31,821 nt of DNA, from positions 1 through 31,821 of the forward strand of contig CAXTTL010000027.1 of the NCBI GenBank assembly GCA_964247135.1, read 5' to 3'. Source of the stretch: an uncultured Deinococcales bacterium (GTDB taxonomy: Bacteria; Deinococcota; Deinococci; Deinococcales; JAAFIG01). Each line of letters starts with the position of its first letter. Positions within the stretch are counted from its first letter, which is position 1. The notes under the pieces are model-generated. The model did no database searches. It saw nothing but the letters and a program-made list of their open reading frames with translations, and was not told the origin of the DNA. Both the position numbers and the translations under genes were made by a program. This document shows, one piece after another, positions 1-31,404 of this stretch.

Positions 1-154
1 GTTTTTAAATAGGTTTTTAAACCTCAGAATCTCGAGATTGTCTGTTCAAGCTCGAGATTTTTTGTTGATTCAGCTTTTGTAAAGCCTTTTGGTATCTGAT
101 GAACTGTCTTCTCACCGACCTGGGTTTAGACTTTAAAATGTTTTGGAGGAATTC

Positions 155-1588
155 ATGAAGAAACCCGTTTTTGTTTTGCTGATGGTCGTGTTGTTTGGTT
201 GGGCTAATGTGAACGCCCAAGCCTTCGAGAATTCGCCAGCGCAAGCACTTTTTGACCAGGCATCGTATTATTTGTCATTCAATTATCACGGTTTCTCGGG
301 CACCGACCCGAACAGTGCGGCATTTAATGAGAAGTACCAAAAGCAACTGGATTTGTCGTGTTTTGTGCAGCGTCAAAATTGTGCCTATGACGTGTCGGTG
401 CCGCTGATCAAGGCGATGGTCGAAGAGATCGGCGACGATCACACCAATTACCTCGAGGCGGATGCCGCAGCGGATTTTGTCACCAGCACCACAGGTGACA
501 ACAGCAACGAACAGGTCACGATGGGTTTTATTCCGATTCCGTTCAGTGACGATAAAGGGTACGGCTTGCGGGTGTATGACGTGCTCGAGGGTTCCGGCGC
601 GGCGAGTGCGGGTTTGGCTCGGGGCGACCGAATTATTGCGATCAACCAGCAGGCTTTTGGGCGCGATTTGGCGGCAATGCGCAAGTTGTTGCTCGCCGCC
701 GATGCCTCTGGGCAGGATGTGCGCCTGAGCATTTTGCGTGACGAGCGCACCTTGCTCGAGTTGACCGTGCCTTCGCGCAAGTTGGTGCTCAACAGTTTGC
801 CCTACATGAGCATTAATGGCGGTGTGGCAAGAATTGTGATTCCCGAATTTGTTGGTCCCGCCAAAACCGCGCCGAAATTACACGAGTTGGTCAAACGCGC
901 GATGGATCGTAAGGTCGCTGCGATTGTTGTCGATTTGCGCAATGACCCGGGTGGGGTCAGCACCGAATGTTTGGCTGGGGCGGGCGCTTTTGTTGGCAAT
1001 TACGGGCGTTTGCGCGAATCGCGTTTCGGGCGTTTTCAAGACAATTACCGCGACGGTGGCGTGTACCAAATCGATGAAAAAGGCAAAGAGACCAAAGTCT
1101 ATCAAATTGACAATTCGCAACTTTGGACGGGCAAGCTGGCGGTGCTGGTCAATCAAGATTCGGCATCCTGCTCCGAGTATTTTGCCAGCGACGTTCAATA
1201 CGCCAAGCGCGGCGTGGTGATTGGCGAACAAACCGTTGGCGTGGGCAACACTGGAACACGACTTTTTAACCTGATCAACGGTGGCGGTCTGCAAATCACT
1301 GTCGTCAAGAGTTTTCACTTGGATGGCACGGTTTATTCAGCCAAGGTCACACCGGATGTTTTTATCAAGGACGATCTCGAGGGGTTTGTCTTTACGGGGC
1401 GCGACAACCTGATGGAACGGGCGCTCCAGGAGTTGGGCGTGCGCAACCCTCCAAAAGCTTTGATGAATCAGCCTTTAGACCTGGGGAAGCAAAAGCGTTT
1501 CTGGTTTGAACGCCCCGCCTCTCGCGTCTCGAGCGCCAGCAATTCGCTGCTCGAGCTGGCAAAAAATGCAGCTTGGAGTCTTCAATGA
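155..1588 (+). CDS. S41 family (CtpA-like) secreted serine peptidase with PDZ domain
   Basis: RBS GGAGG before ATG at 155; signal peptide (...ANVNA-Q); PDZ motif GLARGDRIIAIN; S41 motifs VVDLRNDPGG, LVNQDSASCSE and VIGEQT. Confidence 0.88.
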   Translation: MKKPVFVLLMVVLFGWANVNAQAFENSPAQALFDQASYYLSFNYHGFSGTDPNSAAFNEKYQKQLDLSCFVQRQNCAYDVSVPLIKAMVEEIGDDHTNYLEADAAADFVTSTTGDNSNEQVTMGFIPIPFSDDKGYGLRVYDVLEGSGAASAGLARGDRIIAINQQAFGRDLAAMRKLLLAADASGQDVRLSILRDERTLLELTVPSRKLVLNSLPYMSINGGVARIVIPEFVGPAKTAPKLHELVKRAMDRKVAAIVVDLRNDPGGVSTECLAGAGAFVGNYGRLRESRFGRFQDNYRDGGVYQIDEKGKETKVYQIDNSQLWTGKLAVLVNQDSASCSEYFASDVQYAKRGVVIGEQTVGVGNTGTRLFNLINGGGLQITVVKSFHLDGTVYSAKVTPDVFIKDDLEGFVFTGRDNLMERALQELGVRNPPKALMNQPLDLGKQKRFWFERPASRVSSASNSLLELAKNAAWSLQ

Positions 1589-2838
1589 TGCGATTCTTAA
1601 AACCTGTTTTGACCCTGGCTTTTGCCGTCTCGAGTTTGGCGTTTGCCAGTCCGGCACAGGATTTGTTTAATCAAGCCACCTATTATTTGGCGGTTCAGTA
1701 CAACGGGTATTCCAGTGCGGATTACGCCAATTTTAACACCAAGTATCAACCTGCGCTTGACGCGGCTTGTGCCGATTTGGGCGAATCGTGTCCGTTCACG
1801 GCGGCGACGCCGATCATTTTGCAGATGCTGACGGAATTAAACGATGGTCACACGTATTTGCTGACCAAGGAGGCGGCGCTCGAGGCGCAGCGTCAACGGG
1901 CGGGGCTTGGTCCGAGCACCCCCAAAATTGGCATGGTCACGACAACAGTCAAAGACAGTCCCAACAGGTTGATCACAGACTTGTGGGAGGGTGCGCCAGC
2001 CGCTCGAGCCGGTTTGATGCGTGGGGATGTGGTGGTCAGTTTGAACGGCAAAAGCGCTGCCGAGTTTGCCGATACGTTTCAAGTTTCGATTTCCAAAGCC
2101 ATCTCGACGGGCGAGGTGGTGACTTTGGGGGTTTCTCGAGCGGGCAAACCCCTCGAGTTTAAACTCAAAGGCGAGTTGCTGACGGTGCGTTTGCCGTTTT
2201 TGAAAGTTCTGCCAAATGGTCTTGGCGTCATGCGAATCCCAAATTTTGATGTGAACGGTCAGGTCGCCAGCAAAGTGCATGAATTGGTGGGTCAAGCCAA
2301 CAAGCAAAAACTGCGCGGTCTGATTCTGGATTTGCGCGACAATCCTGGTGGTTTGGTCACCGAATTGATGGGCGTCAGCGCCGCATTTTTGCCCAAAACC
2401 AGTTTGACGTTTGCCGCCCGCGACGGCTCGAGTACCTATACCTCTGAAAATGGTGCGGTCAATATTTCGCAGGGTGTTTTGCAGAATATTACGGTGCAAA
2501 CCATCAGCAAGCCGTCCTTATGGAAAGGGTCGCTCGAGGTGCTGGTCAACAGCCGTTCGGGTTCGGCTGCCGAGTACCTGCCGCAATTTTTGCAAGACGC
2601 TAAACGCGCCACCGTGATCGGCGAACCCACCGCTGGGGTTGGCAACACCGGCATCAGCGCTTTCGGTTTGCCCGATGGCAGCGCCCTCTACATTTCGATC
2701 ATACGGGCGCTCAGAGCCGATTCCAGCCCCTTCCCAGAGCGTGTTAGCCCAGACGTGCCAGTGACCGACGACCTCGAGCTTCTGGCGGCTTCTGGGCGCG
2801 ATGTGGTGCTCGAGAAGGCTTTGGAGTTGATGCCTTAA
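1585..2838 (+). CDS. S41 family secreted peptidase with PDZ domain (paralog of the upstream gene)
   Basis: ATGA overlap with the upstream stop; signal peptide (AFA-S); GLMRGDVVVSLNG, LILDLRDNPGG, LVNSRSGSAAE, VIGEPTAG; N-terminus SPAQDLFNQATYYL resembles SPAQALFDQASYYL of the first paralog. Confidence 0.88.
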   Translation: MMRFLKPVLTLAFAVSSLAFASPAQDLFNQATYYLAVQYNGYSSADYANFNTKYQPALDAACADLGESCPFTAATPIILQMLTELNDGHTYLLTKEAALEAQRQRAGLGPSTPKIGMVTTTVKDSPNRLITDLWEGAPAARAGLMRGDVVVSLNGKSAAEFADTFQVSISKAISTGEVVTLGVSRAGKPLEFKLKGELLTVRLPFLKVLPNGLGVMRIPNFDVNGQVASKVHELVGQANKQKLRGLILDLRDNPGGLVTELMGVSAAFLPKTSLTFAARDGSSTYTSENGAVNISQGVLQNITVQTISKPSLWKGSLEVLVNSRSGSAAEYLPQFLQDAKRATVIGEPTAGVGNTGISAFGLPDGSALYISIIRALRADSSPFPERVSPDVPVTDDLELLAASGRDVVLEKALELMP

Positions 2839-2898
2839 GACGGCGATTGAATATGTAGTCAATCAACTCGAGTTCTTTTATGTTGCTCGAGTTTGCGC

Positions 2899-3897
2899 TT
2901 AAACCAATGTTCTTGGTCTTGTCAGGGCAGGTATCACGGTCATCAAGCTCGAGAGTACAACAACACTTGCCAGCGCAATCGCAACGCTGATGGTCAATGC
3001 ATCGGGCGAGACAATTGATTGTCCGCGCAACGCCTGCCAAGTCGTCAAGAGCATCAAGCCGAAATAACCAAGTCCACCCGTCCAGAGCAGTGCCAGTTGA
3101 CGGTTTTGATTTAAGCGCTTTCGTTTTGAGAGCCAAATGCCAAGCAGCGGTATCAGTTGCAGCGCGTGCAAGCCAATAAAATGTCCAATCCGAATGTCGC
3201 CGTGTTGGGTGTTCCAACCGATCAAGGGCAAACCTGGTTCGGCATCTGGTATGGCGCTCGGGCTGCCGATGGTGTGTGCGCCAAGTAAGATGTTGACTTG
3301 TTTGGCTTGTACTGCTTTCAGTTGTATCGCGTTTGGACCCGCGCTGAGCATTGGGGTCAGCAAACCAACGGCGGTGACGACCAAACCAATTCGGATTGCT
3401 GAAGCAATGACTGGCTGTTGACGCAACCCGCGCCAAACGGCGATTAAAAGTACGACAAAAGCCGCAAACATGGTAAAAATGCCGATGGTCATGGCAATCC
3501 AGAGTGCGGAATCGAACGGCGTGGTGTAATTAAAGTGCATTGGGCGTGCTCGGGTGGCTTGGATCAGAATCATGCCAATCTCGAGGCTGAGAATGATGCC
3601 GATCACGCTGGCGGCAATGTTGGCGCTGCGGCGGGTTTTGCCGTTGGTGATGCCGATGAGCCAGATCAGGGCGAATGCCATGCAAAGGATTGAGACGGAG
3701 AACTTAAAGAGTTTTGACCAGGCGGGCGTGTTGATGATGGCGGTGGCTCGAGGGTCGAAGATCAAGCCCAAAATGCTGACGATCAATGTGCCGCTGGTGA
3801 TGGCTGCCAGAATGGTCAGGGGCAGGTTGGTCTGTCTGAAAGAGGCGATAAATCGGAGGGCTGAACTTGATGGGGTGCTCGAGGTCGCTGGGTTCAT
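2899..3897 (-). CDS. Multi-pass integral membrane protein of unknown function, probable TetR target
   Basis: 332 aa with about 8 hydrophobic segments; HFIGLHALQ motif; AGGAG RBS upstream; divergent from the TetR gene. Confidence 0.75.
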   Translation of the reverse strand: MNPATSSTPSSSALRFIASFRQTNLPLTILAAITSGTLIVSILGLIFDPRATAIINTPAWSKLFKFSVSILCMAFALIWLIGITNGKTRRSANIAASVIGIILSLEIGMILIQATRARPMHFNYTTPFDSALWIAMTIGIFTMFAAFVVLLIAVWRGLRQQPVIASAIRIGLVVTAVGLLTPMLSAGPNAIQLKAVQAKQVNILLGAHTIGSPSAIPDAEPGLPLIGWNTQHGDIRIGHFIGLHALQLIPLLGIWLSKRKRLNQNRQLALLWTGGLGYFGLMLLTTWQALRGQSIVSPDALTISVAIALASVVVLSSLMTVIPALTRPRTLV

Positions 3898-3928
3898 GGT
3901 GGTCTCCTGTGGTTGTTCTCAATTTTCT

Positions 3929-3992
3929 ATCTAATCACTGCTTAATATCCGAACAGTGATAAGATATGCTATAATCTGAACAATGTCAAGAT
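3929..3992. promoter_or_regulatory. Three imperfect 19-bp TetR-type operator boxes plus an extended -10 for a leaderless TetR transcript
   Basis: ATCTAATCACTGCTTAATA (3929-3947), ATCCGAACAGTGATAAGAT (3947-3965), ATCTGAACAATGTCAAGAT (3974-3992); TGcTATAAT at 3967-3975, 7 nt before the ATG at 3983. Confidence 0.65.
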
Positions 3993-4633
3993 CACTGCTC
4001 GAAAACACGCCCAAACACGAGCCGTACCACCACGGCAACCTGCACGCCACGCTGCTCGAGACGGCGCGTTTGCTGGTCGAAGAACATGGCATTGACGGCT
4101 TTAGCCTGCGCGAACTCGCCCGACGGGCTGGGGTCAGCCCCGCCGCGCCCTACCATCACTTCAAAGACAAGGCTGCGCTCATTCAAGCCTTGGCTGAGGA
4201 AAGCCAAATACGGCTTGGGATCGCCTCGCAACACGCCATCAAAGGCATTGACGACCCAATGCAAAGACTGTCGGCGCTGGGGGTGGCATACGTGCTTTAC
4301 GCCTTCGAGCACCCAAGCGAATTTCGCATCATGTTTAGACAAGAACTGCGCTCACCGCTGGGCGAACTCGAGCAACCCGACACTGAACCCGACCCAGCCT
4401 TTGTGCTCTTAAAACAAATCCTGATCGAATGCCGCGAGGCGGGCTGCATTCCCATCACCAGCGAGAAGGCGCTCGAGATCGCGTCCATCAACACCTGGGC
4501 GTTGGTGCACGGACTTGCCACCCTGATTATCGACGGACCGCTGTCGCACAGCTTTCGCACCAAACAGCAAGTGATCGAACTGACCCGCCAGGTGACGGGC
4601 GGGTCGCTCGCGCAACAAATTGCTGGCGCATAA
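3983..4633 (+). CDS. TetR/AcrR family transcriptional regulator (WHG-type C-terminal domain)
   Basis: YHHGNL...FSLRELARRAGVSPAAPYHHFKDK helix-turn-helix; WALVHGLATL C-terminal motif. Confidence 0.93.
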   Translation: MSRSLLENTPKHEPYHHGNLHATLLETARLLVEEHGIDGFSLRELARRAGVSPAAPYHHFKDKAALIQALAEESQIRLGIASQHAIKGIDDPMQRLSALGVAYVLYAFEHPSEFRIMFRQELRSPLGELEQPDTEPDPAFVLLKQILIECREAGCIPITSEKALEIASINTWALVHGLATLIIDGPLSHSFRTKQQVIELTRQVTGGSLAQQIAGA

Positions 4634-4672
4634 AAAAACCTGCCGCCCAAGCTGGCTCGAGCGGCAGGTTTT
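4634..4672. terminator. Bidirectional intrinsic terminator
   Basis: AAAACCTGCCGC-CCAAG-CTGG-CTCGA-GCGGCAGGTTTT hairpin between convergent genes, flanked by A and T runs. Confidence 0.8.
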
Positions 4673-4679
4673 GGTCGTT

Positions 4680-5558
4680 TCAGTTCAAGCTTTTGACGTT
4701 AAACGTATCGCACTTGTTGATATCGCCGGTGTTAAATCCTTGCATAAACCATTTCACGCGCTGGGCGCTGCTGCCGTGCGTGAACGAATCGGGGTTGACA
4801 TAACCTCTGGCACTTTTTTGGATGTGATCGTCACCGATCACTTGGGCGGCATGAACCGCATCTTGAACGTCTTTTTGCGTGATGTGTGCCGCCTCTTGGG
4901 CGGTGCTGCCCCAAATCCCGGCAAAACAATCGGCTTGCAACTCTTGACGCACACTCAAACCGTCCGCGCCCTTCATGGCTGCACCTTGCTGTGCGGCTTG
5001 CATGACCTGATCAGAAATGCCCAACTGGTTTTGCACATGATGCCCAACCTCGTGCGCGATCACGTAAGCGTTGGCAAAATCGCCGCCCGCCCCAAAGCGC
5101 TGACTGAGTTCGGCAAAGAAACTCGTGTCCAAATAGACGTGCTCGTCGCCCGAGCAGTAAAACGGTCCAGAGGACGCGCTGGCTTGCCCACAGGCGCTAT
5201 CGACCGCATCATGAAACAAAATAAGCTGTGGCGGCTGATAGGTGCGCCCGAGTTGCTTAAAAATGCCAGTCCAGGTTTGTTCGGTGCTGCCCAAAATGCG
5301 GGTCACAAAAACACTGTTTGGGTCTTTGGTGTTGACTGGACCGCTGGTGTTGGAGGTCTGAGTCCCTGGCGAGAAACTGCCCATGCCCGAGAGCAAACCC
5401 AGAATTTGCAAGGGATTGACGCCCAAGAACAAACCGACCACCACCGCCAAAATCGTTCCAACCGCACCGACCCGAATGCCGCCGCCCCTCGGCGCGTAAC
5501 CCGAGCCGCCTCCGACCTCTGAGACGTTGGTGCTTTCAGGTAAATTGTTCACATCCAT
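4680..5558 (-). CDS. ypfJ: YpfJ-like neutral zinc metallopeptidase
   Basis: GPFYCSGD, AYVIAHEVGHHVQ (HExxH), ELQADCFAG, PDSFTHGSSAQR; N-terminal TM helix; GGAGG RBS before ATG at 5558. Confidence 0.88.
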   Translation of the reverse strand: MDVNNLPESTNVSEVGGGSGYAPRGGGIRVGAVGTILAVVVGLFLGVNPLQILGLLSGMGSFSPGTQTSNTSGPVNTKDPNSVFVTRILGSTEQTWTGIFKQLGRTYQPPQLILFHDAVDSACGQASASSGPFYCSGDEHVYLDTSFFAELSQRFGAGGDFANAYVIAHEVGHHVQNQLGISDQVMQAAQQGAAMKGADGLSVRQELQADCFAGIWGSTAQEAAHITQKDVQDAVHAAQVIGDDHIQKSARGYVNPDSFTHGSSAQRVKWFMQGFNTGDINKCDTFNVKSLN

Positions 5559-5791
5559 AATGACCTCCGTCAAACCCGAGCGAGCCGAGTTTTTTGTCTG
5601 TCCTCGAGTTTAACGAATTTGGGGGTGGAGTGCCACTCGAGGATTTTATGGTTTGTTTAATGTCCTCAAAGCTGTGGATTTTAGGACTGGCACTTTTTCG
5701 CCAAAGGCTGTGTCAGCGTTCATTCACCGATTGGCTCATCAGTGGGCTTTGGGCATTGCCACAGCTTTTCAATCTCGAGTTATGCTGATTC

Positions 5792-7315
5792 ATGCCAACA
5801 ATCATTCCGCAACCGAACCATCAAAAGTTGCTCGAGGGGCAATTTGTCTTGCTCGAGAATGCCAGCATCGGCGCGAATTCTGGTGCGCGAGCGAAAGCCG
5901 AACAACTGGCTGGGTTTTTACGCCCTGCGACGGGTTTTGCACTGCCAATCATTGAAGGCTCGGGCGGCACCATTCAGCTCGAGTTGAACCCAAAAATTGA
6001 GGGTCCTGAAGCTTATGAAATAAATGTTTCAAACTCGAGTATTGAGTTAAAAGCCTCGAGTGAGGCGGGATTGTTTTACGCGATTCAGAGCTTGCGCCAG
6101 CTTTTTCTCAGCAGTATTTTTTCCGAGTCTCGGGTTGAAAACTCTTGGATTGTTCCGTGTCTCGAGATTCAGGATGCGCCACGTTTTGCCTGGCGCGGCG
6201 CACACTTGGATGTCAGTCGGCACTTCATGCCCGTCACGTTCGTCAAGAAATTTATTGACCTCATGGCGCTGCATAAACTGAACGTTTTTCACTGGCATTT
6301 GACCGACGATCAAGGCTGGCGGCTCGAAAGTTTAAAATACCCGCGTTTGACCGAAATTGGGGCGTGGCGCAAGCAAACCATGATCGGTCACGGGCTGAAC
6401 AAAAATCCTGAATTCGACGGCATACCCCACGGCGGGTTTTACACCCAAGATGAGGCTCGAGAAATCGTGGCGTATGGACTCGAGCGCCATGTGACGGTCA
6501 TGCCCGAAATCGAAATGCCAGGACATGCCCAAGCCGCCCTCGCCGCGTACCCAGAGTTTGGTAACACGGGCGAAACACTCGAGGTTTGGGACAGGTGGGG
6601 TGTCAACGAAAACGTGTTTAACCCGCTCGAGCCAACAATTTTGTTCTTGCAAGGTATTTTAAGCGAAGTGCTCGAGATTTTCCCCAGCGCCTACATTCAT
6701 GTTGGTGGCGACGAATGCCCTAAAACCCAGTGGGAACACAACGGTCCAGCGCAAATCAGAATCACGCAACTCAGCCTGGCAGACGAGCATGAATTGCAAA
6801 GTTATTTCATTGGACGCATGGATCAATTTCTGACCGCCAAAGGACGCCGGCTTGTGGGTTGGGACGAAATTCTCGAGGGAGGCTTGACCGCCAACGCCAC
6901 CGTCATGAGTTGGCGCGGCGAAGAGGGCGGCATTGCGGCTGCCAAAGCGGGACACGATGTGGTCATGACGCCCGAGTACGCCACCTATTTTGACCATTAC
7001 CAAAGCCAAAACACCGAACTCGAGCCACTGGCAATCGGTGGGTTTTTGCCGCTCGAGAAAGTGTATGCCTATGAGCCGATCCCGCCGCAGTTAACCGAAC
7101 TCGAGGCGCGGCATGTTTTGGGGGCGCAGGCACAGCATTGGACGGAATACATGAAAGACGCGGCGCACGTCGAATACATGAGCTTCCCGAGGTTGACTGC
7201 TTTTTGTGAAGTGGTTTGGAGCGATAAATCTTCAAGAAATTATGATGGGTTTCTGGCGCGACTCAAAATTCATCTCGAGCGACTGGATTTGTTAAGGGTC
7301 AATTACCGAAAATAA
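5792..7315 (+). CDS. Beta-N-acetylhexosaminidase, glycoside hydrolase family 20
   Basis: DAPRFAWRGAHLDVSRHF, HWHLTDDQGWR, PEIEMPGH, HVGGDE catalytic pair, GWDEI; no signal peptide; TATGCT -10 box 5 nt upstream. Confidence 0.95.
   Translation: MPTIIPQPNHQKLLEGQFVLLENASIGANSGARAKAEQLAGFLRPATGFALPIIEGSGGTIQLELNPKIEGPEAYEINVSNSSIELKASSEAGLFYAIQSLRQLFLSSIFSESRVENSWIVPCLEIQDAPRFAWRGAHLDVSRHFMPVTFVKKFIDLMALHKLNVFHWHLTDDQGWRLESLKYPRLTEIGAWRKQTMIGHGLNKNPEFDGIPHGGFYTQDEAREIVAYGLERHVTVMPEIEMPGHAQAALAAYPEFGNTGETLEVWDRWGVNENVFNPLEPTILFLQGILSEVLEIFPSAYIHVGGDECPKTQWEHNGPAQIRITQLSLADEHELQSYFIGRMDQFLTAKGRRLVGWDEILEGGLTANATVMSWRGEEGGIAAAKAGHDVVMTPEYATYFDHYQSQNTELEPLAIGGFLPLEKVYAYEPIPPQLTELEARHVLGAQAQHWTEYMKDAAHVEYMSFPRLTAFCEVVWSDKSSRNYDGFLARLKIHLERLDLLRVNYRK
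7274..7306 (+). repeat. 33-bp exact direct repeat, copy 1 (3' end of the GH20 gene)
   Basis: CTCGAGCGACTGGATTTGTTAAGGGTCAATTAC, identical to 9290-9322. Confidence 0.95.
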
Positions 7316-7405
7316 TATTTGGACTTCCAAAACCTCGAGTATCACTACAGCGAATTGAAGCAAAAAATGAACTTCGCTGATCAAAAAGCCTGTTATCCTC
7401 GAGCC

Positions 7406-9247
7406 ATGTTGAAATTGTCGTTGACCGTGTTGACTGGTTTGTTGTGCTGTTCGTTTTCTGGCTGTCAAAACTCCAATGCCGTCATCAATCCAGGCAAACT
7501 CGAGATTGTAAAGCTCGAGTTTGTCCAAACCCATGTGATTCCAAGTGAGGGCAAAATGTTTAGCCTTTCAGGTTTTGGCGTCAACGAACAACGCACCTTG
7601 CGCGTGGTTGCCAACCGTGATGCCCTGGTCTTGTTTCAAGCCATCAACAGTGATCTCACTCAGCCACAACTCGAGGTGCTGCAAAACGATGCAGTCATTA
7701 CTACGATCAGCCTCAACCCCCCAGCCACGCTGCCCAAAACTGAGGCGAATGGTCCAGCCTACTCGAGCAGCTCGTACTGGGCGAAAATTCCAGCCGAATT
7801 TGTCAAGTCGGGTTTAAAAGTTCGTTTCCGAACCAGCGATGCTGTCTCGGAGGCTCGAGTAGTGAACATTGGCGCTCCTGTGGATTTTAATTTGTTTGTG
7901 ATTCCAATTTACTTGTTTGGCGCGACCACCGATTTACTGTCCTTTGATGCGGTCAAAGCGCCACCTCAAAATATCACGGACGAATTCTTTGCCAAAATCC
8001 CCGTCGCCAAACTTAGCATCCTCAACCACCCGCTCGGCAAACTCGAGCTTCCAGAATTGGTCATTGCGCCACGCAACAACCAGGCAGCCTACATTGCCAC
8101 AAGCCCGAGCGATTACAAAGATGGTTTTGCTGGCATGGACGCCACACTCAGTTTGATTCACCGCATCCGTGAAGCCAACGGTGATTCGCCAACCGCCAAC
8201 CAATACTATGGTTCACTGATTCAAAAAGGCACAACAGGTGCGCTTGTTGGCACTGGCGGCGGTTTGGGCGGCGGTCATGCGGGCGTGGGCGATCATCTGT
8301 TCTCGGGCATCTTCATTCACGAGCAAGGTCATGCTTTTGGAATGCCGCACGCCAATGACGGCTTTGTCGCCAAACAATACCCGTATGTGGGTGGCAGTTT
8401 GCTCGGCTCGAGTTGGGGATACGACCCAAAGCACAACGAGTTTCTGGCACCGTTTATTCCAAACTCAAAGGGCGATGGTGTCTGCGGAAGCTACCAAGTT
8501 GACGATCAAAAACGCTGCGTCAAACAAGACCCAATGCAGTCGGGCGCGGGTACTCAAGCCAAAGGGTATCAGTACGCCATGTTCTCGGATTTTAACGCCG
8601 CCCAAGTCCAATGGTATTTTGAAGGCAACCGCTTCACCAACGACAAAGGCGCCCAAGAGTACCTGGGTGGTCGCGTCGAAATTGACTCGAGTTTTGCCAG
8701 TGGTTATAAACGATGGGATAAAATTGATCAAAAATACGTCGAATACACCGTGCCAACCGACGACAAAGGCTTGTACGGTTTAAACGGCAATTTCCCAACC
8801 GAAAAAGCTCGAGCGGTCTACACCATCATGGGAACGCTCAGCAACACCACGCCGACGGTCAACCGCATTTACGCACCCGTCAAATACATTGGAAATTTAC
8901 TGCAACAAATTGATCCAACCTCGAGCGGCGATCTGTCTGACATTCGCCCAAATGTTGGGAAATACCCGTGGTTTTGTCATGCGCGAGGTTGCGATTACAC
9001 GCTGCGCGTCACGTACTCGGATGGTAGCCAGTTGTACCGTTTGATGCAACTGGGGTTTCACAAGTGGTGGCTCAGTCCTGACATCGACCCGACTGCAAAT
9101 GACCCTATCAACCCCAACAGCTTCGGCACTTGGGCAATCAATGTTCCCGCCGACAAAACGACCTCCAAAGTGGAATTGCTGTACACGCCTAAAGGCTATG
9201 AGGGATTGCCGTCAAACCCGACTGTGGTCAGCATCTGGCAGCCTTAA
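7406..9247 (+). CDS. Lipoprotein zinc metallopeptidase, M66 family (dictomallein/StcE/TagA-like)
   Basis: Likely start ATG at 7406 after TGtTATCCT -10; lipobox FSG-C; metzincin motif HEQGHAFGMPH; GGSLLGSSWGYD and KQDPMQSG segments recalled as typical of dictomallein-like proteins. Confidence 0.8.
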   Translation: MLKLSLTVLTGLLCCSFSGCQNSNAVINPGKLEIVKLEFVQTHVIPSEGKMFSLSGFGVNEQRTLRVVANRDALVLFQAINSDLTQPQLEVLQNDAVITTISLNPPATLPKTEANGPAYSSSSYWAKIPAEFVKSGLKVRFRTSDAVSEARVVNIGAPVDFNLFVIPIYLFGATTDLLSFDAVKAPPQNITDEFFAKIPVAKLSILNHPLGKLELPELVIAPRNNQAAYIATSPSDYKDGFAGMDATLSLIHRIREANGDSPTANQYYGSLIQKGTTGALVGTGGGLGGGHAGVGDHLFSGIFIHEQGHAFGMPHANDGFVAKQYPYVGGSLLGSSWGYDPKHNEFLAPFIPNSKGDGVCGSYQVDDQKRCVKQDPMQSGAGTQAKGYQYAMFSDFNAAQVQWYFEGNRFTNDKGAQEYLGGRVEIDSSFASGYKRWDKIDQKYVEYTVPTDDKGLYGLNGNFPTEKARAVYTIMGTLSNTTPTVNRIYAPVKYIGNLLQQIDPTSSGDLSDIRPNVGKYPWFCHARGCDYTLRVTYSDGSQLYRLMQLGFHKWWLSPDIDPTANDPINPNSFGTWAINVPADKTTSKVELLYTPKGYEGLPSNPTVVSIWQP

Positions 9248-9270
9248 CCTCGAGCAGCCTTAACCTCGAG
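9239..9270 (+). repeat. 16-bp tandem duplication spanning the M66 stop codon
   Basis: CAGCCTTAACCTCGAG twice (9239-9254, 9255-9270). Confidence 0.95.
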
Positions 9271-9289
9271 CCTTCAAAACGCCTGTACA

Positions 9290-9322
9290 CTCGAGCGACT
9301 GGATTTGTTAAGGGTCAATTAC
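9290..9322 (+). repeat. 33-bp exact direct repeat, copy 2 (relic GH20 3' end)
   Basis: Identical to 7274-7306; reads LERLDLLRVNY-RHG-stop versus LERLDLLRVNY-RK-stop in copy 1. Confidence 0.95.
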
Positions 9323-9474
9323 AGACACGGTTGAAACTTCATTTCGTGATATGCAGAAAAGAGATGTTTCGTTGTACATGAACCGAGTCCAAACCTGACA
9401 AGCAAACTTCCACGTGTTAAGCTTCATTACGGTGCTGACGCGCCGTGATTTTATTTTCGCGGCTCGAGCCTCTA

Positions 9475-26643: not shown

Positions 26644-27720
26644 ATGCGTTTTAAGATTCTGGTGTTGTGGTTTGTGGTTTTTATGAGCAGCGCCGAGGCA
26701 GCACCGCAACTCTGGCAGGCGTTCACGACCAGCGCCGTGAAACACGCGAACCTCGAGCATGTCCAATTTGGCACTGGCACGGATTTAAAAGTCACGCTCG
26801 AGAAAACCGCGACGACAGGTGTACTCGAGACTGGCATTATTGCTGTCAACGCCGATACCGCGATAGCGTCCTGGAATGCACTGACACCCGAAAACACGTA
26901 TCTCGAGGTTGAGATTCGGGCGCAGATTGGCACGCGCTGGACTGGGTATTACAAGATTGCGCATTGGAACAACGCTGGCGCTAAGTATTCGTTCGCCGTT
27001 CCCGCCGATGGCGATGGACGCGTCAGCACCGACACGTTAAAACTCAAACATGCGGCGAACGGTTTGCAATTAAGGATTTCGTTTCACTCGAGCGTTGCAG
27101 GCATCAGCCCAACACTAACGGGTTTGGCGGTGGTCAGCAGCCTCGCCAGCCAGCATTTCACGGCTGCCAGCACGGTTTCCAACCGTCAAGCTTGGGGTCT
27201 CGAGTTGCCCGTGCCAGTGCATTCACAAATGATTTACCAAGGCGGCGGCGAGGTCTGGTGCTCGCCGACCAGTGTCACCATGATGCTGGGATACTGGGGT
27301 ACAAAACTCGGCTTGAGCCTTGCCGATCCCGTTCCGACCGCCGCCAAAACCATGTGGGATACGGTCTATGACGGTTCGGGCAATTGGGCGTTTAACATGG
27401 CTTATGCCTCGAGCAAAGGCTTAAAAGCCTATGTGCACCGTCTCTCGAGCCTGACACAAGCCGAAAGTTATATCTTAGAAGGCATTCCTCTGGCACTCAG
27501 CATCGCTTGGGGCGTGAATGAACTCGAGGGGGCGCACATTGCCAAATCGGGCGGGCATTTGGTGGTCTTGCGGGGTTTCACCAAAACGGGCGATGTGATT
27601 ATCAACGACCCTGCCGCCAAAACCGATGCTGGCGTGCGCACCATTTATAAACGCGCTGAACTCGAGCGGGCTTGGATTGGGCATTCGGGCGGTGTGGTGT
27701 ACGTAATCGAGGGGAAGTAA
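26644..27720 (+). CDS. Secreted C39-like cysteine peptidase
   Basis: Signal peptide (AEA-A); SQM...EVWCSPTS (Cys), GHLVVLRGF (His), INDPAA (Asp). Confidence 0.88.
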   Translation: MRFKILVLWFVVFMSSAEAAPQLWQAFTTSAVKHANLEHVQFGTGTDLKVTLEKTATTGVLETGIIAVNADTAIASWNALTPENTYLEVEIRAQIGTRWTGYYKIAHWNNAGAKYSFAVPADGDGRVSTDTLKLKHAANGLQLRISFHSSVAGISPTLTGLAVVSSLASQHFTAASTVSNRQAWGLELPVPVHSQMIYQGGGEVWCSPTSVTMMLGYWGTKLGLSLADPVPTAAKTMWDTVYDGSGNWAFNMAYASSKGLKAYVHRLSSLTQAESYILEGIPLALSIAWGVNELEGAHIAKSGGHLVVLRGFTKTGDVIINDPAAKTDAGVRTIYKRAELERAWIGHSGGVVYVIEGK

Positions 27721-27786
27721 ACCTCGAGCCTTCAAATCCCAGCAGCAACCCAAGAATGCCACGAACCTCGAGTTGAAAAGCATGAC
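27715..27786 (+). repeat. 72-bp imperfect direct repeat, copy A
   Basis: AAGTAAACCTCGAGCCTTCAAATCCCAGCAGCAACCCAAGAATGCCACGAACCTCGAGTTGAAAAGCATGAC, matches 28740-28811. Confidence 0.92.
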
Positions 27787-27853
27787 TGCGTCTGGCATGA
27801 CTGAAATGCTCAAGGTGGGAGGACTTACGTTACTGGATTGTGAGCACAAAGCA

Positions 27854-27882
27854 TTGACAAAAACTCATAACAACAATATCAT
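27854..27882 (+). promoter_or_regulatory. Sigma70-type promoter for a leaderless transcript
   Basis: TTGACA (27854-27859), 17-bp spacer, TATCAT (27877-27882), ATG 7 nt later. Confidence 0.8.
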
Positions 27883-27889
27883 TGTCATC

Positions 27890-28335
27890 ATGATTCCACC
27901 GTTCCAAACAAACGGTAACCTCCCACCAGGAATTCACGACGCCACTTGGACCCAAATCACCACACACTTCGGACACACCCCACACCGACTTCGACTGCTC
28001 GCAGGATTGCTCGACGCAGCCCAAGCCCTACACCAAGCAGGCAGTCAATGGATTCTGGTCAACGGCAGTTTTGTCACCAGCAAAATACAACCAAACGACA
28101 TTGACGCTTGCTACGACGACACCAACCTTGACTACATATTACTCGAACAACTCGAACCAAGCCTGGTGGACTTCAGCAACCGTCGCGCTGCACAAAAACC
28201 AGATTTCACTGCGAATTCTTCCCCGCCCGAGCCGTTGCCGACAGTGCAGGACGACAATTTCGAGATTTCTTTAGGCATGACCGCAACAACCAAGACAAAG
28301 GCATTGTAAGGTTGAACTTACCCATCGTCTTTTGA
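27890..28335 (+). pseudogene. DUF6932-like (nucleotidyltransferase-fold) gene with a single frameshift
   Basis: MIPPF..GNLPPGIH, NGSFVTSK.PNDIDACY; after the A5 run at 28194-28198 the -1 frame continues TRFHCEFFPA...FRDFFRHDRNNQDKGIVRLNL to TGA at 28333-28335, next to the RBS of the following gene. Confidence 0.75.
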
Positions 28336-28346
28336 AAGGAGCATTT

Positions 28347-28745
28347 ATGATCGAGAATGATTTACAACTGCGGGTCAGCAAAACCAGATTGGCAGAATTC
28401 AAAATAACACTTCAATCACTCGAGCAAGATGACTTAAGCTCAAAAGCAAAAACCATGCGTCGCAATGCGGTGCTCAGTGTGATTGCTGAACTCGAGGAAG
28501 ACATTCAAAGTTTTGAGCACTTACGCGGCAGCCAAGCTGAAATTTTGAATCTGAGCAATCTCGAGGAACTGCCGAATCAATTGATTCAAGCGCGGGTGGC
28601 TCGAGGGTTCACGCAAGCAGAACTGGCGGCAAAGTTGAAGATGAAACCTCAACAAATTCAACGTTACGAGGCAAGCAAGTACGCCAGCGCGAGTCTTGCC
28701 AGGGTGCTCGAGGTGGCAAGGGTTTTGCAAAACACAAGAAAGTAA
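28347..28745 (+). CDS. XRE/Cro-CI helix-turn-helix protein (antitoxin-like partner)
   Basis: AAGGAG RBS; MIENDLQL..., LIQARVARGFTQAELAAKLKMKPQQIQRYEA. Confidence 0.88.
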   Translation: MIENDLQLRVSKTRLAEFKITLQSLEQDDLSSKAKTMRRNAVLSVIAELEEDIQSFEHLRGSQAEILNLSNLEELPNQLIQARVARGFTQAELAAKLKMKPQQIQRYEASKYASASLARVLEVARVLQNTRK

Positions 28746-28811
28746 ACCTCGAGTCTTCAAAATCCCAGCAGCAACTCGAGAATGCTGTGAACCTCGAGTT
28801 GAAAGCATGAC
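28740..28811 (+). repeat. 72-bp imperfect direct repeat, copy B
   Basis: AAGTAAACCTCGAGTCTTCAAAATCCCAGCAGCAACTCGAGAATGCTGTGAACCTCGAGTTGAAAGCATGAC. Confidence 0.92.
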
Positions 28812-28932
28812 CGCCGTGGTTGGTGGTCAAAGCGTTTGAAGTTGGAATGCAAATTGTGATGGCATTGCAGAATAAACCACAAAAGAAATCTCGAGCGTGA
28901 AACAAAGTTTTGACTACGGATTATCCTAGAGA

Positions 28933-29487
28933 CTAATGTTCCCAAATAAGTATTCCTTCACCGTCAAATACTTCAAAGAGAATTTTTTGTGTTGCTTGAG
29001 CAATCTCTTGTAAGCAATCTGAGCTTATTTCAGATCCTAACTGTAAATTGATTGGGCTTCCTGTTTGGAATAAACCAATTACTAGCTGATAACTAATGGC
29101 AGCTTTTACAGAATCTTCAATTAATGCACGAGTAAAGTTGTCACCGTGAAAAATAGAATAAATATAAGTTTCATAAGTTAGATAACTTATATTATGTTTT
29201 TCTAACCATGGATCACCTTTTCTCGCGCTCGCATATTCAATTATAACGCAATTATTAATGTTCTCTTTTAGATAATTAGTAGCGATTTCAGTCGCTATTG
29301 AAACTGAACTGTGTCCTTTGTTAATACCAGAATGCAGGTTTGGGAAATTTATAGCTTCTGGTAATAAGTTAAAGCTTCCAGTTTCAATTTTGAATTTCGA
29401 GTATAAAGAGGATAACGGAAGTCCAGAAACAAGTTGTTTTCGAGCATAAGTTACTAAGTCAGTATGAGTGGGTTCAATTTGTTCCAT
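28933..29487 (-). CDS. Putative immunity protein
   Basis: Strongly AT-rich 184-aa ORF 11 nt downstream of the toxin-like ORF; AGAGG RBS; no CTCGAG site. Confidence 0.65.
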   Translation of the reverse strand: MEQIEPTHTDLVTYARKQLVSGLPLSSLYSKFKIETGSFNLLPEAINFPNLHSGINKGHSSVSIATEIATNYLKENINNCVIIEYASARKGDPWLEKHNISYLTYETYIYSIFHGDNFTRALIEDSVKAAISYQLVIGLFQTGSPINLQLGSEISSDCLQEIAQATQKILFEVFDGEGILIWEH

Positions 29488-29498
29488 TTAAACCTCTT

Positions 29499-30722
29499 TC
29501 ACTTTGGCTCTATTCTCCCATCAGGATAGATACGCCACCATTTTCCACTGGGGTCTTTCCAGTCATAGTGCCCTCCGACTGGATCAGGATGATCCATATC
29601 TGGACGCAAAGTTTCTCCCGTGGTCGGATTCACCCAATTTCCATCCTTGTCTCCTGGAACACTTCCAGGTCGCCCTTTCCAAACCCAATCGGGTCCTGGA
29701 CTAGTACCAGGGGTAGCAGGAATTGTTGGTGGTGTGGATTTTGGCTGTTCACTTTCCTTCTTCTCCATTTGATGAACAAGCCACTTACCAGATTCTATAA
29801 CCTGATCGAACAACGACACCACCGAACCAAATAACTCCGCACCCGCTTGTTGACCCGAACTCGAGCACAAAAAGATACACGTGACAATAGCAGCACCAGC
29901 AAGAGGAGCACCTTCCAAAGTATTGACTGATAATGCCCCTAAAGCAGCCGCATCCTGATTCGAGCCACCCGAGCTACCACCACCCTTTGGAGAATACTCG
30001 AGTTTAATCCCGCCTTTACCATCTCGAACAACTTTGCCATTCTCGAGCGCGACAATCAAGCCCCGAATTTCATTTTCGTGATACTTGTGATTGTCAATCT
30101 TTCCTTTTAAACCAGTCCAGTATTCCAAACGTTCTCGAGGTGTCAATTGATTATATGCTTGCGAGTTGTCCATTCGGTTCAAGTAATAATCGGCTTTTCG
30201 GTCACTTCCAAGTTCTTGTCGCATTGCCAGTTGTGCTCGAATACGTGAGGCTTCAAGTTCTGCTCGCTCTTTAGCCGCCCCAGTCGAATTGTTCGCTTGT
30301 TTTTCAAGATCAGTTGCCTTTGCATCTAAATCTTTATTGGTGTCACATTCATCCGAAGCAAGTGATTGAATACATTTTCCAGCAGCGTTGTAATATCCTT
30401 GTGGCGTGACGGTCACACCACTCCCACCCGCTTGAGGCGTAACCCCACTCGCCGTTCCAGGACTCGAGCCACTCGGTGGTGTCACCCCAGAACTTGTTGG
30501 CGTGCTCGAGGTTGGCGTGCTTGCATTTGGTGGTGTGACATTGCTGGCACTTCCAGGCAAACCAACTATCGGACTCGAGTTTGGTGCGGTCACACTGCTG
30601 GCGGTGCTAATGTTCGTGATGGCTGTTGGTGTGATTGAAACTGGGGCAGCAAGGGCGGTGTTGCTCGAGAAACCAGCGGCTGGCGTTGGGGTTTGGGTGT
30701 TGCTGCTCGAGGGTACTATCAC
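29499..30722 (-). CDS. Orphan polymorphic toxin C-terminal module with an Ntox37-like tip
   Basis: S/T/P-rich linker, helical region, hydrophobic segment, then PGPDWVWKG...GNWVNPTTGETLRPDMDHPDPVGGHYDW...WRIYPDG; no signal peptide; start uncertain (GTG at 30722 overlaps the upstream TGA; the ORF track gives 30779). Confidence 0.65.
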   Translation of the reverse strand: MIVPSSSNTQTPTPAAGFSSNTALAAPVSITPTAITNISTASSVTAPNSSPIVGLPGSASNVTPPNASTPTSSTPTSSGVTPPSGSSPGTASGVTPQAGGSGVTVTPQGYYNAAGKCIQSLASDECDTNKDLDAKATDLEKQANNSTGAAKERAELEASRIRAQLAMRQELGSDRKADYYLNRMDNSQAYNQLTPRERLEYWTGLKGKIDNHKYHENEIRGLIVALENGKVVRDGKGGIKLEYSPKGGGSSGGSNQDAAALGALSVNTLEGAPLAGAAIVTCIFLCSSSGQQAGAELFGSVVSLFDQVIESGKWLVHQMEKKESEQPKSTPPTIPATPGTSPGPDWVWKGRPGSVPGDKDGNWVNPTTGETLRPDMDHPDPVGGHYDWKDPSGKWWRIYPDGRIEPK

Positions 30723-30958
30723 GGCGTTGGTGCTTTCCCAATTTGCCACACACCAGTTTCCCCACCCGCCCAAAACCATTCGCCTTCCATCGGGCGTCGC
30801 TTGAGCGCAGCCCGAATCAGTTCAAGTTCAACCCGCGAGGCAAACCGAGTCTTGGAATGCCAAACCTCGAGATTGGCGTTTTGTCCAGCGCCACGCAAGA
30901 AACTGGCGGCGCGGTTGATTGCCAAATCAAAAATCGCAGCTCGAGCGGCGGAATTCAT
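30719..30958 (-). CDS. Small hypothetical protein translationally coupled to the NUDIX gene
   Basis: ATGA overlap with the NUDIX stop; 79 aa, WHSKTRFASRV...EWFWAGG...GKAP. Confidence 0.65.
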   Translation of the reverse strand: MNSAARAAIFDLAINRAASFLRGAGQNANLEVWHSKTRFASRVELELIRAALKRRPMEGEWFWAGGETGVWQIGKAPTP

Positions 30959-31404
30959 GACAGTTCTTGAAGCGCCAGTTTGCACCAAGCACGAACTTCA
31001 TTGCCCAGCGGCAACTTCTCGAGTTGAGCAGCATTGCACCAGACAAACGGTTTGTCCTCGCTGGCGATCAAACCTTCATACCCAGATTCTGGACGGGCAA
31101 AATAAATCAAATCAATGTGCTCATGCCCCGCACTAATCCCCTCGAGTTGGATTCCTCTGGGGCGGGTGAGTTGGCGTGGCAATTCACTTTCGGGTGTGTA
31201 CTTGAGCTGGTCTGAAGCGATCAATTGCACCTGAATTCCTGCTTCTTCGAGCACTTCGCGGGTTGCAGCGTGGTCAGGCAGTTCGTTGGTTTCGATGTGC
31301 CCACCTGGCGGCAACCACTTGCCAAGCTTGCGGTGTTCGTGCAACAACACTTGGGCTTGCCAGACCACAAAAACGGCAACCGTAAAATCCCGAGTCAGGC
31401 TCAT
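30955..31404 (-). CDS. NUDIX hydrolase
   Basis: WLPPGGHIETNELPDHAATREVLEEAG Nudix box; HEHIDLIY; TAAGCT -10 box 6 nt upstream. Confidence 0.93.
   Translation of the reverse strand: MSLTRDFTVAVFVVWQAQVLLHEHRKLGKWLPPGGHIETNELPDHAATREVLEEAGIQVQLIASDQLKYTPESELPRQLTRPRGIQLEGISAGHEHIDLIYFARPESGYEGLIASEDKPFVWCNAAQLEKLPLGNEVRAWCKLALQELS

Follow-up and report, generated by a model that had tools for sequence, protein, structure and literature searches.

Integron cassettes, which are promoter-poor or small, are often toxin-antitoxin (TA) pairs, have repeats starting near stop codons and hold no recombinase inside, and Neisseria minimal mobile elements, which in transformable bacteria are slots between conserved genes whose strain-variable cargo is exchanged by flank homology with no flank duplication, are two known settings against which to view the locus reported here. 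This is a TA-like cassette of two genes, for a DUF6932 protein and a helix-turn-helix (HTH) protein, lying between two 75-nt direct repeats on a 31,821-nt stretch of DNA from an uncultured Deinococcales bacterium (the whole stretch is called the window below; it is the entire contig C27 of an assembly of 386 contigs and 5.09 Mb, 84% complete, labelled G000). Like the Neisseria elements, this genome has slots with variable cargo, at C39-NUDIX, efp, rplI and fusA; unlike integron attC cassettes, the locus has no significant hairpin, no common site, no integrase, two repeat copies only and a promoter of its own. An earlier note on this DNA had read the cassette as integrated through a repeat or attachment element. 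We conclude that the architecture is a known kind of footprint and not a new repeat-guided mobile element, and we hold it probable that the 75-bp repeat was left by integrase-free recombination in a cassette hot spot rather than being an attachment element.

Insertion with long target duplication has been described for restriction-modification (RM) genes (Furuta, Abe and Kobayashi 2010, PMC2853133; Nobusato et al. 2000, Gene 259:99, is also cited for it). By the parts of that paper drawn on here, such insertions are recognised by direct repeats of more than 30 bp, a single copy at the empty site, no mobility gene, an insert of less than 20 kb and a repeat found nowhere else; the repeats often span the start or stop codon of the neighbouring gene, and most hosts are bacteria with natural transformation, among them Thermus thermophilus with a 47/47-bp case. 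The window locus is similar in having small addiction genes, repeats above 30 bp (75 nt, 88% identical), an insert of ~0.95 kb, no mobility gene and a repeat in two copies only, and a BrnTA cassette behind efp in the same genome has every one of the recognition features just listed. It differs in that its cargo is TA-like and not RM (the phrase 'toxin-antitoxin' does not occur in that paper), that the window cassette has no single-copy empty site, and that its repeat is an older relic which also travels with the cassette in other genomes. When the literature was searched for 'long target duplication' together with antitoxin, the phrase stood just in reference lists in the part of the matches covered, and nothing on TA genes flanked by direct repeats at terminators was relevant as judged by titles and the starts of abstracts.

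A second described process is homology-facilitated illegitimate recombination with 3'-end displacement in toxin/immunity loci (Kirchberger et al. 2017, PMC5361080, which in the sections used here cites de Vries and Wackernagel 2002 and Jackson et al. 2009). Shared with it, as far as those sections describe it, are a conserved anchor on one side (here the 5' end of a toxin gene plus the NUDIX side) with a non-homologous join opposite, strings of orphaned 3' gene pieces (here XRE antitoxin tails after HTH genes) and an adjoining polymorphic toxin/immunity pair. At our locus, unlike theirs, the join lies at a stop-codon identity of 7–14 nt, the orphan pieces are antitoxin tails and not toxin tips or immunity genes, and the process is proposed from sequence comparison.

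Anatomy and composition of the repeat pair

Copy A (27715-27789) and copy B (28740-28814; no strand assigned to either) are 75 nt long, are spaced 1025 nt apart and agree in 67 of 76 alignment columns (88%), the differences being seven substitutions and two single-base indels; the earlier note, which gave 72 bp and about six substitutions, was thus right that flanking direct repeats are present. Its placement of their starts at stop codons also holds: copy A opens with AAG TAA, the last codon and stop of a Peptidase_C39_2-like open reading frame (ORF; the C39 gene, 26644-27720, + strand, Pfam PF13529, 6.3e-22), and copy B with the AAG TAA that closes the HTH ORF, which ends at 28745. Two CTCGAG sites lie in copy A and three in copy B, as it had counted, but being rich in CTCGAG is no trait of the repeat: the window holds 219 such sites against 5.4 ± 2.1 expected, and in the genome CTCGAG is the top hexamer (33,925 sites, 6.66 per kb), with more than twice the count of the next one. 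A comparison with the whole assembly recovered the second copy with E = 2.3e-19 and no third copy in those 5.09 Mb (84% complete), so that the genome search proposed earlier found just the two and the common dispersed element, named as the contrary outcome, was not seen. Dispersal was likewise rejected on a search of the whole genome plus 19 family genomes, which gave cassette-linked copies only; among the matches listed, the next-best short-word matches genome-wide were 17–18 nt exact or 23–25 nt at 88–91%, all centred on CTCGAG, and a degenerate 33-nt pattern of the repeat had 0 matches in metagenomes. The longest identical runs between copies A and B are 14–16 nt, and the 75 nt are better conserved than the sequence immediately outside. 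A longer repeat was considered and is not claimed: when the 64 nt past copy A were compared with the 121 nt past copy B, the local score was matched by 481 of 1000 shuffles and the anchored score by 68 of 1000. Assembly artefact or chance similarity might be suspected in a 386-contig draft in which CTCGAG words inflate short matches, yet such an origin is hardly credible given the E-value, the non-identity of the copies, unlike a collapsed or chimeric join, and the presence of the same HTH-plus-tail unit in the independent assemblies G002 and G003.

The make-up of the repeat became apparent from its relatives. At E<1e-6 it occurs among 19 family genomes only in G000, G002 (C566, C393) and G003 (three pieces in C12), always beside cassette-family HTH genes. 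Positions 28775-28817 of copy B are 86% identical to L017:3962-4005, which lies within the intact XRE antitoxin gene L017:3716-4096 (the 3' half of the repeat corresponding to its codons 83-97), a gene whose upstream partner is a small protein without a Pfam match, and all repeat copies align with this intact gene. Longer relics of the XRE gene's tail, interrupted by in-frame stops, stand behind HTH genes at L017:45-245 (E 6.7e-17) and at L015:666-460 (E 3.9e-13); in the window a decayed XRE-type antitoxin tail (..LENAVNLELKA*.., with internal stops; 28768-28888, + strand) overlaps copy B and runs past it. A hidden Markov model (HMM) of the XRE C-terminus, built from eight XRE proteins, was run over the 272 nt downstream of each of 19 Deinococcales HTH genes, with 3000 random genome segments as controls. 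The tail was detected in five of the 19 (48.5, 36.5, 32.2, 14.6 and 8.4 bits; 99.9th percentile of the controls, 5.9 bits) and the HMM found none after the other 14; the 8.4 bits are those of copy B and were reached by 3/3000 controls, while copy A scored weakly (3.6 bits, reached by 17/3000). These comparisons showed that the repeat consists of the last codon and stop of an HTH gene, then a CTCGAG, then what is left of the tail of another, XRE-type antitoxin gene, and showed the stop plus XRE-tail unit to be the normal 3' end of this DUF6932-HTH lineage in three genomes. As a side observation, the reverse strand of L015 (G003:C12), 1920-4070, holds three different XRE-antitoxin tails around two HTH genes, beside a transposase-like ORF.

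The left junction can be read in the same terms. Family HTH genes end ..A(A/G)(A/G)TAA(A/G)C(C)TCGAG followed by the tail, those elsewhere ending ..AAGTAAGCTCGAG plus relic, and C39 orthologues end GGGGAAGTA(A/G), the C39 end of G001 reading AAGTAAATCTCGAG with divergence right after. Because the ends of the HTH genes and of the C39 orthologues share this stop-codon sequence, copy A appears to be the remaining 3' end of an HTH gene since lost, fused to C39 within the shared GAAGTAA; if the ancestor resembled G001, the identity at the fusion would extend up to 14 nt (AAGTAAAyCTCGAG). Copies A and B both combine a type-1 5' part with a TTGAAAAGCATGAC 3' part, a chimeric structure not seen in the G002:C566 or G003:C12 R1 copies, and they are therefore taken as sister copies from one duplication. 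A tandem order is found in G003:C12, where HTH, tail, part-tail, DUF6932, HTH and tail follow one another.

The notion that the repeat is a true attachment site (attC-like or other) used by a recombinase encoded elsewhere has some appeal, as attC sites often begin at stop codons, integron arrays often hold TA cassettes, and attC clusters without an integrase need no adjacent recombinase. The earlier note was correct that no recombinase is adjacent: none lies within ~4 kb of the cassette, where the neighbours are C39, a 184-aa ORF, an Ntox37-like toxin gene and NUDIX. Genome-wide, the best match to the integron integrase model TIGR02249 reached 40.9 bits against a cut-off of 265, absence being unproven in a genome 84% complete. 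Neither copy folds significantly as RNA on either strand (z = +0.94, -0.83, +1.36 and -1.88, with RNA parameters). Nor is there a cassette array with a shared site: the repeat has two copies only, and the other 17 cargo-type repeat pairs of the genome (below) all differ from it in sequence, only the one on contig C35 having tyrosine-recombinase-like matches. With two copies, no significant fold, no recombinase nearby, no integron integrase over the cut-off and homology to XRE coding sequence, the repeat is not an att site or attachment element, and use by a distant recombinase is highly improbable. The integration route proposed earlier is unsupported on these counts and in view of the 12% divergence of the copies; in addition, the repeat also follows cassette-family HTH genes without C39 in two other genomes, and 14 of the 19 Deinococcales cassettes lack the tail.

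Alternatively, the repeat could be a functional element kept twice (a terminator, a small RNA or a regulatory site) and not a scar. The better conservation of its 75 nt than of the adjoining sequence, a possible 9-bp CTCGAG-based hairpin in copy B and a position between convergent genes would suit such a role. Against it, fold energies are no better than those of shuffles, copy A lacks that hairpin on the + strand, no terminator was called at the repeats (the one call in 27500-29100 falls inside DUF6932), and the 14 related cassettes without an XRE tail do without it; we see very little chance that this explanation holds.

Duplicated flanks across the genome

The earlier note had pointed to a second case of the same architecture at 7274-9322. 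It is real: the final 36 nt of a GH20 gene are present twice (7274-7309 and 9290-9325; 36 bp, 35/36 identical; the unit 7274-9325 on the + strand) and enclose a Peptidase_M66 gene (7319-9247), and in G001, G003 and G004 the M66 gene is absent and the GH20 end is joined straight to the sequence after copy 2. A self-BLAST of the genome for same-strand pairs of 25–200 bp, at least 85% identical and 0.2–6 kb apart, returned 33 repeat pairs. Fifteen were set aside (within genes, paralogous genes, dispersed hairpin motifs). Each of the remaining 18 encloses a discrete cargo unit and has a sequence of its own, and ten of these hold Pfam TA families: PIN with RHH or MazE (C127, C353 and, twice, C10), BrnT/BrnA (C151), HicB (C4), PhdYeFM (C275), two PemK genes (C36), DUF433/DUF5615 (C1) and the window's own DUF6932/HTH. 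Two more are probable TA units, one of XRE plus an unnamed partner, found by tblastn (C142), and one with HTH_3 only (C86 unit 1). The remaining cargo consists of Peptidase_M66, AraC plus an epoxide hydrolase, an AlkZ-like glycosylase, a unit without matches, and C73, besides a 5.7-kb unit (G000:C35:3612-9384, repeats of 52–53 nt). This last, the sole cargo-type pair with tyrosine-recombinase-like matches (by the left copy, between the copies), is read as an ordinary integrative element, useful for contrast. In most cases the repeat reproduces the terminator or the final codons of an adjacent conserved gene, such as efp, fusA, rplI, IMPDH and GH20; repeats that differ from one another and match local gene ends or terminators are the signature of duplication of a target or flank and do not point to an att site in common.

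Eight TA cases besides that of the window were looked up in five sister genomes. For the BrnTA cassette after efp (G000:C151:2176-2870), four of the five have clean single-copy empty sites, with subject overlaps of 29–52 bp. In the fifth the efp site (G005:C77, L164:1780-2460) holds a Uma2 gene (1.2e-22) with the flank duplicated again. The same interval is duplicated around BrnTA in G000 and Uma2 in G005, running between the CTCGAG of the hairpin loop and the one that follows the T-run, and the efp cargo is bounded by CTCGAG on both sides; the efp terminator has received two independent insertions. The site behind fusA is empty in G005. Duplicated flanks around TA cassettes are common in this genome, and in two cases they are proven target duplications. 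As a separate observation, a ~140-nt element at G000:C86:6960-7100 (L141:1260-1403), within a duplicated-flank unit, has well over 100 copies across the five sister genomes (78–98% identical) and is probably a miniature dispersed repeat.

The place of CTCGAG at the efp boundaries raised the possibility of a wider role for this word. Among the 36 boundaries of the 18 cargo-type pairs, 16 have a CTCGAG no more than 5 nt inside, where ~4–7% would be expected, and the M66 and C142 repeats begin exactly at CTCGAG. The TA, Uma2 and other cassettes in the family would then spread integrase-free via breaks and rejoining at or through the CTCGAG palindrome, mostly where a conserved gene has its terminator or final codons, with the interval between the two breaks duplicated. 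We regard this idea as tentative and rather unlikely: local terminators often hold CTCGAG, the word may decay more slowly than its surroundings, and the window repeat does not have its edges at CTCGAG, as they lie 8 nt and 17 nt beyond its outer CTCGAG sites. An apparent association of the word with synteny break points of the window was not upheld (by eye, 3–4 of ~12 within 10 nt; not clearly above chance). If true, the CTCGAG reading would give this HIP-like word a role in genome plasticity. Two further occurrences may be recorded: at window position 5774 homology starts exactly at CTCGAG, and at G000:C176:707-10011 a 38-nt motif with two CTCGAG sites occurs at least six times over a 10-kb contig that also carries an ART-PolyVal-like gene.

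Some further observations concern the surroundings of the M66 unit. In relatives GH20 ends in two forms (..YRK*, ..YRHG*), and the window has one after each repeat copy. In the stretch 9225-9290 the M66 gene closes with CAGCCTTAACCTCGAG x2 in tandem, and the next 17 nt equal the start of copy A (AACCTCGAGCCTTCAAA), a match that is probably due to chance, there being several such 17-nt words in the genome, but one that sits at a further cassette edge. Comparison of window 5774-7315 and 9381 onward with relatives places GH20 2 kb upstream of purA in the window and ~31 kb away from it, beyond the NUDIX side, in G004:C164 and G005:C50. The idea taken from this spacing, that the contig is circular or tandemly duplicated, was dropped, as the contig has no terminal overlap and its positions 1-5773 are unmatched in that interval; we read the difference as a rearrangement.

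The C39-NUDIX slot and the origin of the repeat

The C39 gene is 85–88% identical at the nucleotide level in four genomes of the same genus (G001, G003, G004 and G005), and in each the homology ends at its stop codon. On the right, the conserved flank is a NUDIX gene (30955-31404, - strand; Pfam 1.1e-13), kept in G001, G004 and G005 and without a match in the retrieved stretch of G003. Between the two lies a slot (27721-30705) which in the window holds the cassette, a 184-aa ORF (28933-29487, - strand) and a 426-aa polymorphic-toxin-like gene (29499-30779, - strand). The toxin has an Ntox37-like C-terminus (18.7 bits, below the cut-off; its homologue in G004:C51 scores 29.0 bits, above the 27.8 cut-off), and the first ~25 codons of its ORF are kept in relatives that lack the remaining toxin, homology restarting at 30706-30723. 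The 184-aa ORF, immunity-like by its position after the toxin gene, has no notable Pfam, NCBIfam or PADLOC match; among the family genomes there is a syntenic, 58% identical copy in G004:C51, a weak match in G011 and no others, and a metagenome scan with an alignment of the immunity-like protein gave 594 pattern matches, 0 of them confirmed. Elsewhere the slot is 245 bp in G005, 685 bp with an unrelated small AT-rich ORF in G001, and occupied in G004 by a ~1-kb minus-strand gene that is also present after C39 in G003. Sequence comparison thus supports a hot spot between C39 and NUDIX that appears to be refilled with different cargo per species. The cassette itself turns up at other loci, 87% identical in G002:C566 and 80% identical between hemA and hemL in G003:C509; the window's own genome has a diverged cassette paralogue in the hemA-hemL slot, and G004:C51 carries a diverged yet syntenic cassette-immunity-toxin block. 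In all of these the left homology edge of the cassette is at 27851-27854, just ahead of the -35 box.

We propose that the 3'-end unit of the cassette was duplicated during cassette insertion or amplification without a site-specific enzyme, by one of two routes. One is insertion of the cassette downstream of an HTH gene since lost, with long target duplication; in the other, a tandem array of cassettes would have lost its first member. The upstream copy would afterwards have become joined to C39 across the short identity, through a deletion or through import with the conserved toxin/NUDIX side as anchor.

A Campbell-type event would offer another way to the same structure, in which a circle of cassette plus repeat recombined via RecA with a resident repeat beside C39, the repeat being a portable homology arm and loop-out being possible. 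The common chimeric make-up of copies A and B, hence their standing as sisters, would agree with this, as would G003:C12, where the repeat pieces are 87–92% identical to those of the window and the cassette is only ~73% identical over parts, as if flanks had been kept and cargo swapped. However, identical runs of 14–16 nt are short for RecA exchange, no genome searched has a single resident repeat after C39, and the cassette sits at other loci, e.g., hemA-hemL, without any repeat, which makes the Campbell-type event distinctly unlikely.

Several points weigh against our preferred origin, integrase-free duplication of the cassette's 3' end. The earlier note had proposed to look for empty sites in relatives; the cassette is indeed absent from the slot in all four genomes that keep C39, and so is the repeat, but there is no single-repeat empty site. 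The predicted pre-insertion allele, C39 followed by a single repeat, is in no genome searched, so the defining sign of a target duplication is missing at this locus, and no allele with repeat and immunity gene without the cassette was seen in the family. Genome-wide, six of the eight TA cases looked up lack a clean empty site, two being occupied (with both repeats) in one relative each and four lying in substituted regions. The 12% divergence of copies A and B is at the level of between-species orthologues within the genus and implies an old duplication or different donors, and the link between tail and cassette is lineage-specific, only 5/19 cassettes carrying an XRE tail. Long target duplication cannot be told apart from a tandem array followed by microhomology deletion or import. 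Finally, all genomes are draft metagenome-assembled genomes (MAGs), and the frameshift described below and some of the junctions could be assembly errors.

The DUF6932-HTH cassette and its wider meaning

The insert of ~0.95 kb contains DUF6932 and HTH genes alone. Its promoter-like site (TTGACA-17-TATCAT, 27854-27882, + strand) has 11/12 consensus matches and, as the -10 hexamer ends 7 nt ahead of the ATG (27890), the cassette mRNA is probably leaderless. The TTGAC box is kept in 9/10 aligned cassette promoters. An imperfect inverted repeat over the -10 box (27868-27889, + strand; core ACAAT-ATC-ATTGT, 27873-27885) has its CAA..TAT..TTGT columns invariant in 10/10 cassette promoters, and it is a candidate operator of the HTH protein. 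The first gene (DUF6932, Pfam PF22014; 27890-28335, + strand), a candidate toxin, is frameshifted: it starts in frame 1 from 27890, nucleotide alignment with G002 and G003 places one missing base in the A-run 28194-28198, and the conserved C-terminus is read from the following frame, which ends with the stop at 28333-28335; in tblastn an intact homologue matches the gene as two pieces in different frames. Accordingly the window ORF matches PF22014 over profile positions 1-105 of 142 only (88.8 bits, 5.8e-25), compared with positions 1-141/142 (128.9 bits, 2.5e-37) for the intact homologue from G003, whose cassette is the one 80% identical to that of the window. Of the self-contained promoter, DUF6932 and HTH unit seen earlier, the promoter and both genes are thus present, but the DUF6932 gene is probably dead and its HTH partner intact. 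The DUF6932 copy of G002 is disrupted elsewhere, near its 5' end; two related cassettes each carry a disabled candidate toxin gene beside an intact HTH gene.

The second gene, for an XRE-type HTH protein (28347-28745, + strand; Pfam HTH_3, 3.4e-10), is a candidate antitoxin and repressor. It is preceded by AAGGAG at 28336-28341 and is 84–87% identical to its G002 and G003 orthologues, and the closest database records of the protein are from Deinococcales bacterium MAGs. The gap between the two genes is 11 nt in the window, compared with a 4-nt overlap in L016. DUF6932 stands directly upstream of the HTH gene in 75/80 loci from many phyla, which supports a conserved two-gene TA-like module; the cassette is a discrete unit with its own promoter. 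A search by name found no paper on DUF6932. The intact DUF6932 homologue matches PDC-M63A, a component of the PADLOC candidate defence system PDC-M63 (8.3e-15 over 133/153 residues), while the HTH protein matches no PDC-M63 model.

Toxin-first TA pairs with XRE antitoxins include HigBA and MqsRA, and nucleotidyltransferase TA proteins include MNT of HEPN-MNT and AbiEii/MenT. Like HigBA and MqsRA, the cassette has two small coupled genes with the XRE HTH second and a promoter palindrome. G59, S60, D70, D72, K137 and G138, which include a G-S..D-x-D motif, are invariant among 52 DUF6932 sequences. An AlphaFold model of the protein (predicted local distance difference test (pLDDT), 93.5) had no Foldseek match at E of 0.001 or below (best E 0.19), the weak matches being mostly to Pol-beta-type nucleotidyltransferases, and the DUF6932 profile gave only a chance-level match among PDB sequences (E 0.35). 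In a wider structure search nearly all top matches were nucleotidyltransferases, all with Z < 8, the best being 2rff (Z 5.2, root-mean-square deviation (rmsd) 4.3, 91 aligned) and 1no5 (Z 5.2, rmsd 4.0, 96 aligned), with 8xeh further down (Z 4.7, rmsd 3.8, 95 aligned). The model is consistent with a minimal nucleotidyltransferase fold and no more, its nearest matches being minimal nucleotidyltransferases; there is no HEPN partner, and the matches stay below Z of 8. When the intact G003 pair was modelled as a complex it scored 0.86, against a best of 0.00 in three controls; the mark applied is reached by 116/157 solved complexes and 2/215 mismatched pairs, counts that are only rough here, where custom alignments were used. 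Contacts agree in at least 97% between runs, the partner pLDDT is at least 81, and the modelled interface comprises HTH residues 14-48 and DUF6932 residues 77-124. The HTH protein is thus predicted to bind DUF6932 through its N-terminal helices, and the window frameshift, near DUF6932 residue 103, removes part of that modelled interface. DUF6932 is a candidate toxin, and the HTH protein a candidate antitoxin that probably also represses the promoter through the palindrome over the -10 box.

Bacteria of the Deinococcus-Thermus lineage are polyploid and transformable and repair shattered chromosomes. How TA genes move without mobility genes is poorly understood, and this genome offers a compact natural data set of 18 small cargo units, ten of them TA. 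The result should keep the repeat from being annotated as an att site or as a novel mobile element. The main by-product of the analysis is the genome-wide set of duplicated-flank TA cassettes together with the reused efp slot, which adds classical TA modules, and the Deinococcus-Thermus lineage, to the range of a footprint described for RM genes.

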